Source: an uncultured Parabacteroides sp. (GTDB lineage: Bacteria; Bacteroidota; Bacteroidia; Bacteroidales; Tannerellaceae). From it: a stretch of 64,000 nt of DNA. The notes below the pieces were generated by a model that saw only the letters and a list, made by a program, of their open reading frames with translations, was not told the origin of the DNA and made no database searches. The stretch is taken from the NCBI RefSeq assembly GCF_902493135.1, contig NZ_CABUOD010000024.1:5585-69584 (forward strand). Direction: 5' to 3'. A program made the position numbers and the translations under genes. Shown here piece after piece: positions 2,786 through 63,307 of the stretch; position 1 is the first letter of the stretch, and every line of letters begins with the position of its first letter.

Positions 2786-4336
2786 TTACCAACCTTCATT
2801 AGGAGTACATAACGTATTTGTTTCCAGTTCCTTGGAAGGTATCGGATAATAATAATAACGATTTGTATTACCTACTTTTCCAGTTATCAACTGCTTATAA
2901 CGCACCTCATTACAAGTCCTCATCCGTTCTTCCAGCAACCCCCAGCGGCGCAAATCGTAAAAACGTTCTCCTTCCACGAAGAATTCGATGGCACGCTGGC
3001 GTTCCAAGTCGTTAAAAACAGCCTCGTATGTCTGTGCCCCGCTATATGGATTCAAATTGGCACGTTCACGTATCTGGTTCAAGTAACTGATCGCAACCGA
3101 TAAATCCTGTTTGCCACGCAGATAAGATTCTGCAAGTAACAATATCACATCTGCATAACGGACGGCACGTTCGTTGATACAAGACATGGGAGGTGAAGGT
3201 TCCGATTCCTGCGTGTTCCAATTCTGGTATTTCAAGATCCAAAACGTATTCCATCTGTCTTCTGCAAACCTTTCTCTAAACGGTTTTAAATAATAGGTAC
3301 AACCTTCCCAGTCCCAAGCAACCGAAGTACGAGCACGATAATCAAAATTACCGTCTTTGTCTTTTTCTTCTAAGAAATAATCCATGATTTGCGGAGTAGG
3401 ATTCGCCTCATACCAACCGCCGGCTTCCGGTGCCGCATACTCTTTTGGACGTGTATTGGTTTGCGTAGAATTGATGTTTTCTCCATCGCCCCAAATATCC
3501 GTTCCGCCAACCGGTTCCATGAGCAACTCAAAAATACTCTCGTCATTATTCTCATGCGTATCATCAAAATTCCAAGCAAAATCATCGACCAAACGATAAG
3601 AATAAGGAGAATGAGTCAACGGTTCCAAAACATCAATCGCCTTATCGAACTGTTCTTCATAGACATAAATTTTACCCAACATGGCATTAGCCGCACCTTT
3701 GGTAGGCTTACCCGCCACATCGTTTTTCACCGGCAGCAAAGACGCTGCCGTGATCAAATCCTGTTCAGCCTGAGCCCATATCTCCGCCTGAGACGATTTT
3801 TCCAACGGGAACGTCGCTGGAGACTGTGATGCCGTCAAACGCAAAGGTGCATCCTTAAACTCTTTTCCCAACTGGAACAGATAAAAACCACGGATAAAAA
3901 GACACTCTCCTTTCACCTTATTAATGAAATCGGTTGTAAAGTCACCCTGTTTCTCTTCTAATTTCTGCATGATGGAATTTGTCCGGTATAAAGCATTATA
4001 GAACTGGTAAAACATCCCTTGCGATAAAGAGTTGCCATTCGTATTGGTGAAATAACAAGCCTGAAAAACATCACTGATGTCATTTCTGAACTCCACCTCG
4101 TCAGCACGCGCAATACGCATCATGACACCGCGAGTACCATAATAACCTCCATTCAACGCATTTTTAAGCGGAGTATAACAAGAGGTCAAGGCCAATTCAA
4201 AATCCGCTTCTGTTTTCCAGAAAGTATCTTCTGTCGCCTTATTCGGATTTACCTGTTCCAACTGCGAATCACAAGAAGAACAAAAAGTGACGAGTGCGAC
4301 AGCACAAGCTATAAAATATAGATATATTCGTTTCAT
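2786..4336 (-). CDS. SusD/RagB family nutrient-binding outer-membrane lipoprotein (PUL1)
   Basis: Lipoprotein signal (ALVTFCSSC), 516 aa, TPR-like helical SusD pattern (YLFQLGKEFKD, FYDLRRWG), located immediately downstream of a SusC-type gene. Confidence 0.9.
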   Translation of the reverse strand: MKRIYLYFIACAVALVTFCSSCDSQLEQVNPNKATEDTFWKTEADFELALTSCYTPLKNALNGGYYGTRGVMMRIARADEVEFRNDISDVFQACYFTNTNGNSLSQGMFYQFYNALYRTNSIMQKLEEKQGDFTTDFINKVKGECLFIRGFYLFQLGKEFKDAPLRLTASQSPATFPLEKSSQAEIWAQAEQDLITAASLLPVKNDVAGKPTKGAANAMLGKIYVYEEQFDKAIDVLEPLTHSPYSYRLVDDFAWNFDDTHENNDESIFELLMEPVGGTDIWGDGENINSTQTNTRPKEYAAPEAGGWYEANPTPQIMDYFLEEKDKDGNFDYRARTSVAWDWEGCTYYLKPFRERFAEDRWNTFWILKYQNWNTQESEPSPPMSCINERAVRYADVILLLAESYLRGKQDLSVAISYLNQIRERANLNPYSGAQTYEAVFNDLERQRAIEFFVEGERFYDLRRWGLLEERMRTCNEVRYKQLITGKVGNTNRYYYYPIPSKELETNTLCTPNEGW

Positions 4337-16497: not shown

Positions 16498-16580
16498 TTA
16501 GGCACGGATTACACGGATTTCGCGGATAATATTATTGATTTAAAACAAAAACCGTGTTAATCCGTGTAATCCGTGCCTAA
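16498..16580. repeat. Cargo-less inverted-repeat hairpin of the CGGAT 9-nt-periodic family
   Basis: The arm TTAGGCACGGATTACACGGATT (16498-16519) is perfectly complementary to 16559-16580, with a ~39-nt loop. CGGAT cores lie at 16505, 16514 and 16523 (9-nt spacing). Confidence 0.85.
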
Positions 16581-28403: not shown

Positions 28404-29747
28404 TTATTTGCAAATCCGGCAACCGGCGCATCTCGCCAGTTCTCCGCGGAAACGTTTTTCTACTAATTTGTGCAGGCGGTCTTTCAAGGCATCCAGACGT
28501 ACATAGTCGATCACGTCCGAAGTGAAAGCTACGCTCAACAACATGCGTGCCTCGTCGCGGGGAATGCCACGGCTCTGCATATAGAACAAGGCGTTTTCGT
28601 CCAACTGCCCGGTGGTCATGCCATGCGAGCATTTCACATCGTCGGCATAGATTTCCAACTGGGGCTTGCTGTACATGCGGGCTTCACGGGTCGCACAAAG
28701 ATTGCGGTTCGTCTGATAGGCTGCTGTCTTCTGTGCGTCTTCCTTCACTAAGATACGGCCGCTGAACGCACCGGTCGCATGGTCGTCCAAGACATTCTTG
28801 AACAGTTCGTTGCTGGTGCAATGAGGTACGGCATGCGTAATATGGCTGTATGTGTCCAGTTGCTGTTCCTTGTCCAGGATGGACATACCGCACAAGGTCG
28901 CTTCAGCCTGTTCACCGTTCAGTTCGATATAATAGTTGTTGCGGGTAAGGCCGTTATTCAGCGTAATGCCGTTCACCAAGACGTTACTTCCCGCTTCCTG
29001 CTTCACATGCACGGAGGCAAAACGGGTAGTCGACACACTGCTCTCTTCGAGGTCGTAATAATCGAAGAAGGCGCCTTTGCCCGCAAAGATCTCGACCACC
29101 TGCGTAGCCAGGAACTTGACATCGTCGATGCTATGGTCACACACCAGCAGCTTGGCTTCCGAACGAGGCTCCATAATCACCAGAATACGGCGATTCGCCA
29201 TCGTGTCCACATCGCTGCGGAAGATATTCACCAACTGGACCGGACGCTCCACTACGACACCTTCCGGCACGTAGAGCACAAAGCCGTCCTGAGCCAGCAT
29301 CGTGTTCAAGGCGATGATGCCATCCTTACCGCTCGGAGCCGCCTTGCCGTAATAGCGGGAGGCCACTTCAGGGTATTTCTCCATGAAAGTACGCATTCCC
29401 CCGGCATAAACTCCTTCAGGAAGATGGGCTTTGGGCAACACCTTGTCGTAGAAAGTGTCGTTCACCACAAAATAAAGCGAGGTACTCAGATTGGGAACAT
29501 CGCAACGGAACACGTCATAGGGGTTGACCGGTATGTCGAGGCGATTGATATTCACCCCATAGTCCGGGGCAAAAGCCTGCGCCACATCCGTATATTTATA
29601 ATCTTCACTCTTCACCTGCGGAAACCCCAGCCGCTCCAAATCAGCCAAAGCCTTCGCACGCGGTGCATTCATCACGCTTGCCGCATGCTTACATATCAGC
29701 GATTCACACTGCGTAAAGAGGTCTATATATTGTTGTTCTGCTTTCAT
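28404..29747 (-). CDS. sufD: Fe-S cluster assembly protein SufD
   Basis: 447 aa with a SufB/SufD beta-helix C-terminal pattern (QLEIYADDVKCSHGMTTGQLDENALFYMQSRGI), in a suf gene context. Confidence 0.93.
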   Translation of the reverse strand: MKAEQQYIDLFTQCESLICKHAASVMNAPRAKALADLERLGFPQVKSEDYKYTDVAQAFAPDYGVNINRLDIPVNPYDVFRCDVPNLSTSLYFVVNDTFYDKVLPKAHLPEGVYAGGMRTFMEKYPEVASRYYGKAAPSGKDGIIALNTMLAQDGFVLYVPEGVVVERPVQLVNIFRSDVDTMANRRILVIMEPRSEAKLLVCDHSIDDVKFLATQVVEIFAGKGAFFDYYDLEESSVSTTRFASVHVKQEAGSNVLVNGITLNNGLTRNNYYIELNGEQAEATLCGMSILDKEQQLDTYSHITHAVPHCTSNELFKNVLDDHATGAFSGRILVKEDAQKTAAYQTNRNLCATREARMYSKPQLEIYADDVKCSHGMTTGQLDENALFYMQSRGIPRDEARMLLSVAFTSDVIDYVRLDALKDRLHKLVEKRFRGELARCAGCRICK

Positions 29748-29773
29748 GTGCTATTTAATTATTACCTGTAATA

Positions 29774-30293
29774 GAAGAACCAGGTTCGCGGATGACGCGG
29801 ATTGGGCGGATTTTAACGGATTACTATTTAATTTGATTCCTTTGTTTATATCTATCGTGCAGATTATTGGCAAAGACTTTCCGCCTAAATTCCGGATGTG
29901 CTCCAAAGTTCAGTAGCAGCCCCACTTCGATGCGGGTAGCCTTCAAATAATTTTGCAACTGCATTTCATGTGCTTCGGTAAGCACACTTGAGGCCTTTAG
30001 TTCCAATATTACTTCATCTTCCACAACCATATCTGCAATGTATTTACCTACAACTTCACCTTTATAATAGACCTCTATAATTTTCAGAGGCTCACACTTC
30101 AGTCCCATCGAACAAAGTTCCTTATAAAGAGCATTCTGATAAACACTTTCCAGAAAACCGAAACCAAGCTCATTATACACGGCATAAAATGCCGATAATA
30201 CCTGATCCGTAATCTCTTTACAAAGCAATTTCATAAACAATAATAATCCGTTAAAATCCGCCCGATCCGCGTCATCCGCGAACCTGGTTCTTC
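29774..30293 (-). mobile_element. Inverted-repeat-bounded cassette carrying a GxxExxY PD-(D/E)XK gene (putative; mobility not shown)
   Basis: The 50-bp arms 29774-29823 and 30244-30293 are reverse complements at 49/50 positions. They abut the ORF on both sides. Each arm contains CGGAT cores spaced 9/9/10 nt. An ATA triplet lies just outside each arm. The cassette interrupts sufC-sufD. Confidence 0.6.
29824..30240 (-). CDS. GxxExxY family protein (PD-(D/E)XK nuclease-like fold)
   Basis: 138 aa with the GxxExxY motif (GFLESVY), a D..E.K pattern (ADMVVEDEVILELKA), and the C-terminus GLLLNFG typical of the family as I recall it. Confidence 0.85.
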   Translation of the reverse strand: MFMKLLCKEITDQVLSAFYAVYNELGFGFLESVYQNALYKELCSMGLKCEPLKIIEVYYKGEVVGKYIADMVVEDEVILELKASSVLTEAHEMQLQNYLKATRIEVGLLLNFGAHPEFRRKVFANNLHDRYKQRNQIK

Positions 30294-30308
30294 ATACAAT
30301 CCAAATTC

Positions 30309-31061
30309 TTAATCTCCCATCTCTTTCTTGATCCAGTCGTAGCCTTTTTCTTCGAGTTCGAGGGCCAGTTCGGGACCGGCGGTCTTGACGATGCGGCCCT
30401 TGTAGAGGACATGGACTACGTCAGGCTTGATATAATCCAGCAGGCGCTGGTAGTGCGTGATGACGATAGCCGCATTCTCAGGCGTACGGAGTTGGTTGAC
30501 ACCGTTCGCCACGATCCGGAGGGCGTCGATATCCAGGCCGCTGTCCGTTTCGTCGAGGATCGCCAGCTTCGGTTCGAGCATGGCCATCTGGAAGATTTCG
30601 TTCCGCTTCTTCTCACCGCCCGAAAAACCTTCGTTCACGCTGCGGCTCGCCAGTTTATTGTCCAGTTCGACAATCGCACGCTTCTCACGCATCAGTTTCA
30701 GGAAGTCGGTAGCCGAAACAGGTTCCAGCCCTTTATATTTACGATGTTCGTTCAAGGCGGCACGCATGAAGTTCACCATGCTGACACCCGGAATCTCCAC
30801 CGGATACTGAAAGCTCAGGAAAATCCCTTCGCGGCTTCGGTCTTCCGGTTCAAGATCCAGCAGGTTCTTGCCGTTGAAGATCACCTCCCCTTCCGTCACC
30901 TCGAATGCCGGATTACCGACCAATACACTGCTCAAGGTACTTTTCCCGGAACCGTTCGGTCCCATGATGGCGTGTACCTCACCCGCCTTGACAGAAAGGT
31001 TGATCCCTTTCAATATCTCTTTGCCATTGACATTGGCATGCAAGTTCTTTATCTCTAACAT
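30309..31061 (-). CDS. sufC: Fe-S cluster assembly ATPase SufC
   Basis: 250 aa with Walker A (GPNGSGKST), ABC signature ([11 protein letters not shown]) and Walker B ([12 protein letters not shown]). Confidence 0.97.
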
Positions 31062-31234: not shown

Positions 31235-32680
31235 TCACCCCACGCTCCCCTCCAGGGAGATGGTCAGCAGCTTCTGTGCTTCTACGGCAAACTCCATCGG
31301 GAGCTTGTTCATCACCTCGCGGGCATATCCGTTTACGATCAGGCCGACAGCTTCTTCGACCGAGATACCGCGCTGCCGGCAATAGAACAACTGCTCCTCG
31401 CTGATCTTGCTTGTCGTCGCCTCGTGTTCCACTACCGCCGTTTCGTTCTGGATATCGGCATAGGGGAAGGTATGGGCGCCGCAAGTCGAACTGAGCAGCA
31501 GGCTGTCGCACTGGCTATGGTTGCGGGCGCCTTCGGCACGGGGAGAGACTTTCACCAAGCCGCGATAGCTGTTCTGGCTATGTCCGGCGGAGATGCCTTT
31601 CGAAACGATCGTGCTGCGGGTGTTCCGCCCGAGGTGGATCATCTTCGTGCCGGTATCGGCCTGCTGGTAGTTGTTGGTGACAGCCACCGAGTAGAACTCG
31701 CCTACCGAATTATCGCCGGCCAAGATGCAGCTCGGATATTTCCAAGTGATGGCGGAACCGGTCTCTACCTGTGTCCAGGAAATCTTGCTTCCTTCGCCCT
31801 TGCACAGTCCGCGCTTGGTCACGAAGTTATAGATTCCCCCTTTTCCTTCCTTATCGCCCGGATACCAGTTCTGGACGGTAGAATATTTCACTTCGGCACG
31901 TTCATGCGCCACGATTTCGACAATGGCGGCGTGAAGCTGGTTCTCGTCGCGCATCGGTGCGGTACAACCTTCGAGGTAACTGACGTAGGCTTCATCGTCC
32001 GCCACGATCAGGGTACGTTCGAATTGTCCGGTGTTGGCGGCATTGATACGGAAATAGGTGGATAGCTCCATCGGGCAACGCACGCCTTTCGGGATATAGA
32101 CAAACGAACCGTCCGAGAATACCGCCGAGTTCAAAGCAGCAAAGAAGTTATCACGATAGCTGACCACGCTTCCCAGATATTTCTGGACCAGATCGGGATG
32201 ATGCTGGACGGCTTCGCTGAAAGAGCAGAAGATAATGCCTTTCTCGGCAAGCGTTTCCTTGAATGTCGTCTTTACGGAGACACTGTCCATCACGGCATCG
32301 ACCGCCATCCCGCTGAGCTGAGCACGCTCGTGCAGGGGGATACCCAGTTTGTCGAACGTCTTCATCAGTTCCGGATCGACCTCGTCCAGGCTCTTCGGGC
32401 CTTCCTTCTTCTTCGGGGCAGCATAGTAGATGATATCCTGATAGTCGATCGGCGGGATCATGAGGTGAGGCCAGGTGGGCATCTCCAGTGTCTGCCAGTG
32501 GCGGAAAGCTTTCAAGCGGAACTCAAGCAGCCATTCCGGTTCATTTTTCTTGGCAGAAATAATACGGACGGTCTCTTCATCCAATCCGCGATGAATCACC
32601 TCCGTATCTATATCGGTAACGAATCCGTATTTGTAATCACCGGTCGTTACCTCATTTAGTATGTCGTTCGAATCTTCCAT
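31235..32680 (-). CDS. sufB: Fe-S cluster assembly protein SufB
   Basis: 481 aa with highly conserved SufB blocks ([49 protein letters not shown]). Confidence 0.97.
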
Positions 32681-63221: not shown

Positions 63222-63307
63222 TTTTAGGCACGGATTTCACGGATTACACGGATTTCACGGATTTTTCTTTATCCTTTCCGTGTAATCCGTGAAATCCGTG
63301 CCTAAAA
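63222..63307. repeat. Cargo-less inverted-repeat hairpin of the CGGAT 9-nt-periodic family
   Basis: The arm TTTTAGGCACGGATTTCACGGATTACACGG (63222-63251) is perfectly complementary to 63278-63307. CGGAT cores lie at 63231, 63240, 63249 and 63258 (9-nt period), with a 26-nt loop. Confidence 0.85.

Follow-up and report, generated by a model that had tools for sequence, protein, structure and literature searches.

Why should a small open reading frame (ORF), bracketed by inverted repeats, stand between two genes of a housekeeping operon? The question is raised here by a 64,000-nucleotide stretch of DNA from an uncultured Parabacteroides sp. of the Tannerellaceae (assembly GCF_902493135.1, contig NZ_CABUOD010000024.1, positions 5,585 to 69,584 of the forward strand), referred to in its whole length as the window. 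An earlier note, made from the letters of the window alone, had described a GxxExxY-type ORF between sufC and sufD, had taken it to be an inserted cassette with its own hairpin-forming ends, and had likened it to the REP-associated tyrosine transposases (RAYTs) that are flanked by repetitive extragenic palindromic (REP) sequences. When the locus is placed among related genomes and homologous loci, it appears on balance probable that it holds a compact, selfish nuclease cassette of a homing-like kind that carries repeat arms of its own, inserted at the sufC-sufD junction and resembling REP/RAYT systems in organization with a different enzyme. Sequence comparison indicates that the element was inserted, that the arms travel with the ORF, that the junction turns over by recombination through the flanking genes, and that ORF-less copies of the arms are scattered elsewhere. 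The locus comprises the following features, listed by position in the window.

28404-29747, minus strand: sufD, the downstream host gene (SUFBD_core match), whose 5' 100-200 nucleotides (nt) form a recombination mosaic among related species
29748-29773, minus strand: sufD-side spacer, 26 nt, A/T-rich, from the 3' arm to the sufD ATG, not present in empty sites
29774-29828, minus strand: downstream (3') arm, the reverse complement of the 5' arm, overlapping the TAG stop of the ORF
29824-30234, minus strand: GxxExxY/PDDEXK_3 ORF, 136 amino acids from its ATG, assigned by PF13366, TIGR04256, an AlphaFold2 model and invariant residues
30239-30293, minus strand: upstream (5') arm, GAAGAACCAGGTT followed by four CGGAT-core units, ending 4 nt before the ATG
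30294-30308, minus strand: sufC-side spacer, 15 nt, from the new sufC stop to the 5' arm, not present in empty sites by junction comparison
30309-31061, minus strand: sufC, the upstream host gene (ABC_tran match)
31235-32680, minus strand: sufB, upstream of sufC and on the same strand as sufC, the ORF and sufD

The description given in the earlier note is accurate. The ORF is present on the strand of its neighbours and reaches 138 amino acids if read from a TTG at 30240 (29824-30240), while the gene callers used for public assemblies choose the ATG at 30234. The inverted repeats that bracket it were likewise confirmed, at a length of 55 nt, slightly above the 50 nt noted: a repeat finder reported one long inverted repeat, 29774-29828 against 30239-30293, with 96% complementarity. 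Each arm has the layout GAAGAACCAGGTT-CGCGGAT-GA-CGCGGAT-NGGG-CGGAT-TTTAA-CGGAT, and the four CGGAT cores, spaced by 9, 9 and 10 nt as had been stated, can be read directly from the sequence. A 35-nt pattern drawn from the arms has exactly two matches in the window and none in 100 shuffles. By SufD, the closest species representative of the host is Parabacteroides hominis, with 97% identity.

What kind of protein does the ORF encode? Its product matches PF13366 (PDDEXK_3; E = 1.2e-38, 132.5 bits against a cut-off of 22) and, as a full-length family member, TIGR04256 (GxxExxY; E = 9.8e-37, 125.9 bits against a cut-off of 35). In an alignment of 34 homologues, the G, E and Y of the motif G26-F-L-E29-S-V-Y32 are invariant, as are D68, E78, K80, Q92 and Y96, so that both the GFLESVY signature and the D..E.K pattern first seen by eye (D68...E78-L-K80) fall at invariant columns. 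A D...ExK...QxxxY arrangement is the active-site layout of RecB/Cas4-type nucleases. The AlphaFold2 model built from the 34 sequences (mean predicted local distance difference test score, 91) has an alpha-beta-beta-beta-alpha-beta core, and its best Foldseek matches in the Protein Data Bank are Cas4 SSO0001 (4ic1, E = 6.6e-5) and LHK/lambda exonucleases, with weaker matches to Hjc and MGME1; a sequence search for solved structures gave no match. Structure prediction thus bears out the PD-(D/E)XK fold suggested earlier, with the catalytic D, ExK and QxxxY present, and the protein is predicted to be a minimal RecB/Cas4-like PD-(D/E)XK nuclease. As a nuclease of this type hydrolyses DNA and performs no strand transfer, any mobility must make use of host repair or recombination.

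An assignment as a CRISPR Cas4 protein was considered and rejected. The closest solved folds are indeed of the Cas4 and lambda-exonuclease kind, with the same D...ExK...QxxxY layout, but the cassette protein, at 136 amino acids, is about two-thirds the length of 4ic1 (about 200), shows no conserved cysteine column or cluster in the 34-sequence alignment, scores 17.4 bits against the Pfam Cas_Cas4 cut-off of 22.7 and matches the PADLOC Cas4 models at E >= 4e-4. Its neighbours are suf genes, with no cas genes nearby, and the search against defence-system models returned this weak Cas4 similarity and no other match. The family itself is large, with at least 7,988 word-indexed matches and, in a full scan at E <= 1e-3, 12,715 clusters at 50% identity. 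It includes proteins of 250-270 amino acids in which two GxxExxY domains are naturally fused (P0121-P0125, P0128 and others), which suggests that the single-domain proteins work as dimers. Pairs of GxxExxY genes are also found in tandem on one contig, 24-258 nt apart, at loci L121, L130 and L158. Literature searches on GxxExxY/PDDEXK_3 and on REP sequences or miniature transposable elements with inverted repeats (MITEs) in Bacteroidetes or with PD-(D/E)XK enzymes, most subscription journals lying outside their reach, returned no function for the family, in agreement with the earlier note, no link of the family to repeats and no description of the element.

Is the ORF an insertion into the operon? 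We surveyed the sufC-sufD junction by a SufD scan over one genome per species, which yielded 80 Tannerellaceae loci. The junction is essentially empty in 57 of these, where the SufC match ends at most 15 nt, and typically 7 nt, before the sufD ATG, which supports the claim of an inserted cassette. One empty form, gat-GAG-TGA-C-atg, is that of Parabacteroides sp. ASD2025, which shares 100% SufC identity with the window; the other empty form reads gat-GAG-TAA-TT-atg, and the empty junction sequence includes ...GGGAGATGAGTGACATGAAGGC.... An intact GxxExxY gene occupies the junction in only four loci, with amino acid identities to the window ORF of 90% (L017 and L061), 65% (L068) and 59% (L011, P. 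hominis). The junction of P. massiliensis (L012) holds an 83-nt remnant, in which the first 8 nt of a window-type 5' arm are fused to the 3' arm between the same outer spacers as in the window; from its sequence, this is an internal deletion of the window-type cassette. A decayed cassette of the L011 type is found at L070 and a lone arm at L082. The alignment of junctions that had been proposed for detecting empty sites therefore returns empty, occupied, decayed and remnant states alike. Seven further Tannerellaceae loci (L036, L045, L055, L026, L028, L059 and L062) carry A/T-rich hairpins of 50-135 nt without an ORF at this junction (at about 2870-3000 in each), built from other short periodic units (TTGACAATT..., GATTAATG...), and these could represent arms in advanced decay or, alternatively, a sister class of palindromes with phased units.

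Comparison of occupied and empty sites also indicates what the insertion did to its hosts. The last sufC codon and the stop are swapped out, such that SufC ends in ...MGD in the window and in ...MGDE at empty sites, and 15 nt and 26 nt are added outside the arms. An A/T-rich leader of 14-30 nt precedes the sufD ATG in every occupied allele, and the 26-nt spacer of the window probably supplies a translation-initiation region for sufD after the loss of stop/start coupling. One suggestion of the earlier note did not hold, namely that an ATA triplet might be a 3-bp target duplication. The triplet lies outside both arms in the window, but one T is missing on the right side in L017 and L061 and neither empty form contains ATA or TAT; as it is unconserved and has no counterpart in the empty sites, a duplication is unsupported.

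Do the arms belong to the gene? From 80 fetched metagenomic loci encoding homologues at 52-68% amino acid identity, 78 were usable for a test in which the 160 nt upstream were aligned locally with the reverse complement of the 200 nt downstream, the threshold being set at the 95th percentile of the scores from 191 placements chosen at random in the contigs of these loci. Bracketing inverted arms exceeded this threshold in 72 of the 78 (median score of 22.5, against 8.5 and a maximum of 13 in the controls). The arms share a common design, an outer (A)TAGAAC-like end followed by three to four units with the consensus ACRCNGAT, and of about 374 GAT-to-GAT distances, 152 are 9 nt and 85 are 10 nt. 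Distant homologues in other phyla keep this design with different units: Gemmatirosa arms use an 11-nt CTTCAGTCC unit, Bernardetia arms a ACACAGAGA unit, and Treponema has a single ACACGGATTCG on each side of the GxxExxY gene. Similarity of the arms in 7-mers climbs with identity of the proteins (Spearman 0.29, reached by none of 500 permutations). The same arrangement of arms plus ORF is, moreover, found at two junctions, sufC-sufD in P. hominis and murG-murC in L099 and L102. Comparable phased-unit arms at homologous loci, their tracking of the protein and their recurrence at murG-murC together support the view that the arms belong to the gene. In many homologues the ORF runs into the 3' arm, which yields C-terminal tails such as ...KSALSASSAS.

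Further observations concern the arms themselves. The cassettes of L118 (arms at 2479-2501 and 2874-2896) and L132 (2470-2500 and 2866-2887) encode proteins that are 99% identical and yet have unequal numbers of units, two left and three right in L118, three left and two right in L132, as if one ACACGGATT unit had switched arms. At L143, a lone 3'-type arm with four units (2307-2339) lies in frame within a 307-amino-acid ORF (1749-2671) and is apparently translated as part of a host protein. An annotated 'hypothetical protein' beside the GxxExxY gene of Prevotella nigrescens (NZ_CP082843.1; L184, 1592-2023) consists of tandem repeats of about 100 nt that contain ACAAAT-type phased units, and the annotation is likely wrong. 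An integron gene cassette, which has one 3' attC site (RYYYAAC...GTTRRRY) and stands in an array next to intI, was rejected as an identity for the element: arms are present on both sides, their ends (GAAGAAC.../ATAGAAC...) do not fit an attC core, and the cassettes are single, inside operons and have no integrase nearby.

What is conserved in the protein and in its arms? Five comparisons of the ORF give a ratio of nonsynonymous to synonymous substitution rates (dN/dS) of 0.04-0.08, with values of 0.04-0.05 against L017 and L061, which indicates strong purifying selection on the GxxExxY protein. Between the window and L017, the ORF has a dS of 1.30 and 82% nucleotide identity, whereas the 50-nt arm cores match at 49 of 50 (5') and 45 of 50 positions, or about 94%; similarly, L011 (suf) and L099 (murG-murC) differ hardly at all in their arms, against an identity of about 74-78% in their ORFs. 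By this comparison sequence constraint is stronger on the arms than on the synonymous sites of the ORF, and because these non-coding arms change more slowly than synonymous sites, they would be functional cis elements. Among the arm-arm mismatches of 69 elements, no excess of wobble pairs compatible with a sense RNA was found (104 against 117, p = 0.42), and 415 of 636 mismatches are transversions. The constraint would therefore act on a sequence motif rather than on pairing alone, and looks like the conservation of a putative protein-binding motif.

The setting of the cassettes raises the question of whether the arms might instead work in the transcript. At the 55 loci with both neighbours within 600 nt, the cassette is co-directional with both in 49, and between co-directional neighbours 49 of 50 cassettes share the direction of those neighbours (p ~1e-13), with gaps of 30-150 nt. 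The junctions occupied include the housekeeping pairs sufC-sufD (in five metagenomic loci), murG-murC and ftcD-hutI, a class I/II aminotransferase gene followed by a dethiobiotin-synthetase-like gene (bioF-bioD-like), and peptidase and hydrolase pairs. In the cassette of the window no terminator was detected, and promoter-like sites were not above shuffled expectation in a scan that does not model Bacteroidota promoters. Around the ORF, the arms are predicted to form an RNA stem of 55 bp (z = -11.8) that encloses the whole of it, adjoining its start codon and overlapping its stop codon, and one pair of arm positions shows what looks like compensation (T/A in the window and G/C in L061, L017 being intermediate). 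All of this would suit an explanation in which the arms act mainly in RNA, as a long stem in the suf transcript that is cut by RNase III, so removing or insulating the ORF and controlling translation of the nuclease, the conserved units being incidental to mobility. The resemblance would then be to the ORF-bearing intervening sequences of 23S rRNA (S23p, four-helix-bundle), in which a small orphan ORF likewise lies within stem-forming inverted repeats and is patchy among strains. We regard this as unlikely, if the most credible of the alternatives. The wobble test and the predominance of transversions speak against it, as does the retention of ACRCNGAT units, phased at 9-10 nt, down to 55-60% protein identity, which pairing alone would not require. 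An intervening sequence or other known RNA family was, in addition, rejected, since Rfam recognized no family in the arms at E up to 1 and, across 20 homologous loci, no rRNA and one tRNA only; unlike the intervening sequences, the cassettes lie outside rRNA, in the window as at these 20 loci, and encode a different protein family.

How do cassettes come to differ between hosts? Allele relationships at sufC-sufD, as judged from sequence, cut across those of the hosts. SufD is 100% identical between L118/L132 and L131, while their cassette alleles are 59-60% identical; L002 and L011, which are essentially one species (sufC dS 0.024, sufD dS 0.052), carry alleles that are 70% identical. Conversely, the alleles of L002 and L068 are 86% identical against 78% for host SufD, and those of L131 and L122 are 82% identical against 75%. 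The sufC-sufD alleles are mostly mutual nearest relatives across host families, with the murG-murC lineage nested among them, so that the site would be retained while hosts change. Mismatch profiles along sufD, assessed by Fisher tests, place the exchange at the junction. Between L002 and L011, the first 100 nt of sufD hold 15 mismatches, against 0.5 per 100 nt afterwards (p = 5e-13); between the window and L002, the first 200 nt hold 0-1 mismatches, against 6.6 per 100 nt afterwards (p = 9e-5); and between L013 and L022, both with empty junctions, 5 mismatches per 100 nt at the sufD start are followed by 12.5 later on. Such flank mosaics point to exchange through homologous recombination whose breakpoints lie no more than about 100-200 nt from the junction, a pattern that is compatible with homing and not specific to it.

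The 5' end of sufD is also unusual more generally. Codons 1-35 (in L011-L031, the first 100 nt from position 3001) diverge much more strongly among Parabacteroides species, and are more of a mosaic, than the remainder of sufD; in the comparison of the window with L013, for instance, 31 of these 100 nt differ, against a rate of 7.9 per 100 nt over the other parts; and a divergent, mosaic 5' end is observed between species with empty junctions as well.

Are there arms without a gene? The window itself holds two such elements, both perfect hairpins.

16498-16580: ORF-less perfect hairpin of GGCACGGATT-type 9-nt units, with 22/22-nt arms and a 39-nt loop, between SusD-like and GH2 genes
63222-63307: second ORF-less perfect hairpin of GGCACGGATT-type 9-nt units, with 31/31-nt arms and a 24-nt loop

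The genes around the first are co-directional and belong to a polysaccharide utilization locus, and a contig of another assembly terminates exactly at the end of this hairpin. The GGCACGGATT-type arms match the cassettes of P. hominis (suf) and L099/L102 (murG-murC), not the suf cassette of the window. In the roughly 1.03 Mb of DNA fetched, a GxxExxY ORF is present within 200 nt of 147 of the 188 unit arrays; among the remaining 41, about two dozen are solitary hairpins, solitary arms or hairpins arrayed in tandem, and what is left resembles chance matches to a loose pattern. At L169 (1-1620), six complete hairpins with a period of 168 nt stand in tandem upstream of a GxxExxY gene and one more stands downstream, so that the gene lies between hairpins rather than inside one, in a cluster like the bacterial interspersed mosaic elements. 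In Gemmatirosa kalamazoonensis (L183, L186), the gene is flanked by two complete palindromes of 150 nt, composed of CTTCAGTCC units of 11 nt together with a CGTACGTGGAG inverted repeat on the outside, and the arm recurs at >=40 and >=30 places on two megaplasmids that carry two and no GxxExxY genes, respectively. At the level of genome organization, then, the analogy with REP/RAYT systems is sustained by same-unit hairpins without an ORF in the window and by at least 70 repeat copies around and beyond the gene in Gemmatirosa.

When these observations are combined, a route by which the cassette could persist and spread may be proposed. It would consist of a gene for a predicted GxxExxY nuclease and two terminal inverted arms, each with three to four conserved units (here CGCGGAT/CGGAT) spaced by about one helical turn, 9-10 bp. 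The nuclease, probably a dimer, would recognize the phased units of its own arm type, and the arms would thus be the recognition sites of the cassette itself. Breaks that it made at empty or rival junctions, or at hairpins, would be mended in the manner of homing, an occupied copy serving as the template for the homologous recombination of the host. In exchange from one genome to another, the homology would come from the conserved sufC and sufD flanks; within genomes, arms and ORF-less hairpins could serve as sites of both recognition and homology, in a partnership like that of REP and RAYT. Because neither a promoter nor a terminator is evident in the cassette, which is co-directional with the operon, transcription is proposed to occur by read-through from suf, and the 55-bp RNA stem formed by the arms probably keeps translation of the nuclease low.

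Several observations weigh against this homing-like account. The window-type lineage differs from L017 by a dS of 1.30 in the ORF and 1.39 in sufD; since the two match, the copy in the window would not have been recently mobile, and its lineage appears to be an old one, passed on vertically. A role that benefits the host could account just as well for the long-term purifying selection, and recombination mosaics also arise by ordinary transformation and recombination without a nuclease. It is conceivable that the ORF-less hairpins form a repeat family of their own, with which the genes are merely associated or into which they insert. No target-site duplication was found in the other alleles, and the precise ends of the element are not definable from the junctions compared. 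As to a vehicle for transfer, none was identified among phages, with no tblastn match in 50,697 records and no PHROG family, and plasmids gave only eight matches, mostly to large secondary replicons (megaplasmids), a rarity that tells in the same direction. Finally, the homologue P0062 stands in one genomic context in all 24 of the 24 contigs read, and recent transposition of this one allele was rejected, given that its identical protein occurs on many contigs and, in those read, in no second context.

Some of these points, together with dN/dS of 0.04-0.08 sustained over dS > 1 and the sheer size of a multi-phylum family, are what would be expected if the gene had been domesticated for a host function, such as repair, defence, chromosome organization or mRNA stability, with presence and absence reflecting ordinary gene gain and loss; RAYTs and REPs have reportedly been proposed to be domesticated. 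Such a role seems to us improbable, slightly more so than an action of the arms in RNA. The gene is patchy at its site, intact in 4 of 80 species, decayed and remnant copies exist, near-identical hosts carry divergent alleles, and no conserved partner gene is found near the cassettes, while the defence models offer the Cas4 similarity described above and nothing more. Wedging into tightly coupled housekeeping gene pairs is, furthermore, typical of tolerated parasites rather than of recruited functions. A last alternative, that a conventional MITE or insertion sequence family, moved by an unrelated transposase elsewhere, has the arms as its terminal inverted repeats, with the GxxExxY gene as a passenger or the hairpin as a pre-existing target, is very improbable: same-unit ORF-less hairpins do far outnumber genes in Gemmatirosa, occur there on a replicon without a GxxExxY gene, and, there and at L169, enclose the gene between complete hairpins rather than within one, but most unit arrays lie beside a GxxExxY ORF, no other ORF family was found within such arms, arm type co-varies with the protein both within Bacteroidota and across phyla, and neither a target duplication nor, among the loci examined, a transposase gene beside any cassette was found.

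The homing-like cassette can be compared with known systems of which it shares parts. With the REP/REPIN-RAYT systems of Proteobacteria it has in common a small nuclease-type gene with palindromic repeats of its own on either side in cis, numerous palindromes without an ORF dispersed between genes (in Gemmatirosa, at least 70 copies against two genes), largely vertical inheritance, purifying selection on the gene and a repeat type that co-varies with the protein. It differs in its enzyme, a predicted hydrolytic PD-(D/E)XK nuclease without a Y1_Tnp match, where RAYTs are IS200-like transposases of the HUH/Y1 type, and in its repeats, which are three to four phased units of 9-11 nt, where a REP is a hairpin of 20-40 nt with a GTAG or CGTC head. 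In Bacteroidota, moreover, the arms pair across the gene, and the genes are multi-copy, lie inside operons and show allele turnover at the same site. The free-standing homing endonuclease genes (such as seg/mob in T4-like phages, or that of the PD-(D/E)XK enzyme I-Ssp6803I) are similar in being lone nuclease genes between conserved genes, in the empty, occupied, degenerate and remnant states of a single site, in a site that is kept while the phylogenies of element and host disagree, and in recombination tracts beside the insertion, co-conversion-like and here covering the first 100-200 nt of sufD, although such tracts are not specific to homing. Unlike the cassette, they lack bounding inverted repeats and dispersed ORF-less repeats, and their hosts are phages and organelles rather than cellular Bacteroidota chromosomes.

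MITEs and insertion sequences with terminal inverted repeats, including the Correia/NEMIS elements, resemble the cassette in those repeats, in short non-autonomous derivatives with two arms, in an intergenic position with co-transcription from neighbours, and in the breaking of assemblies at their copies. The cassette has, by contrast, no strand-transfer transposase of the DDE, serine or tyrosine kind, its only ORF being the 136-amino-acid nuclease from a family with a core of 125-140 amino acids, no detected target-site duplication, and arms made of phased tandem units.

For GxxExxY/PF13366, a widely annotated orphan family, this analysis provides a first testable hypothesis, that of a nuclease acting on its own phased-unit arms. 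It is possible, at a little under an even chance, that the GxxExxY nucleases are the dedicated enzymes of an unrecognized, multi-phylum class of selfish DNA that combines homing-type spread, directed at conserved operon junctions, with REPIN-like amplification of ORF-less hairpins, and there is a substantial chance that the element deserves recognition as a class of its own. If so, more than 12,000 clusters at 50% identity would gain a function, and the HUH-based REP/RAYT systems would have a PD-(D/E)XK counterpart, which would mean that a partnership of a nuclease with palindromic repeats evolved at least twice in bacteria with unrelated enzymes. It would also explain many of the short hairpins and odd small ORFs in the housekeeping operons of gut Bacteroidota, which break assemblies and are misannotated as hypothetical proteins. 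A protein of about 125 amino acids that recognizes phased 9-10-bp units in a sequence-specific manner could be of use as a DNA-targeting tool, and the cassettes would be natural markers of recombination between gut species.

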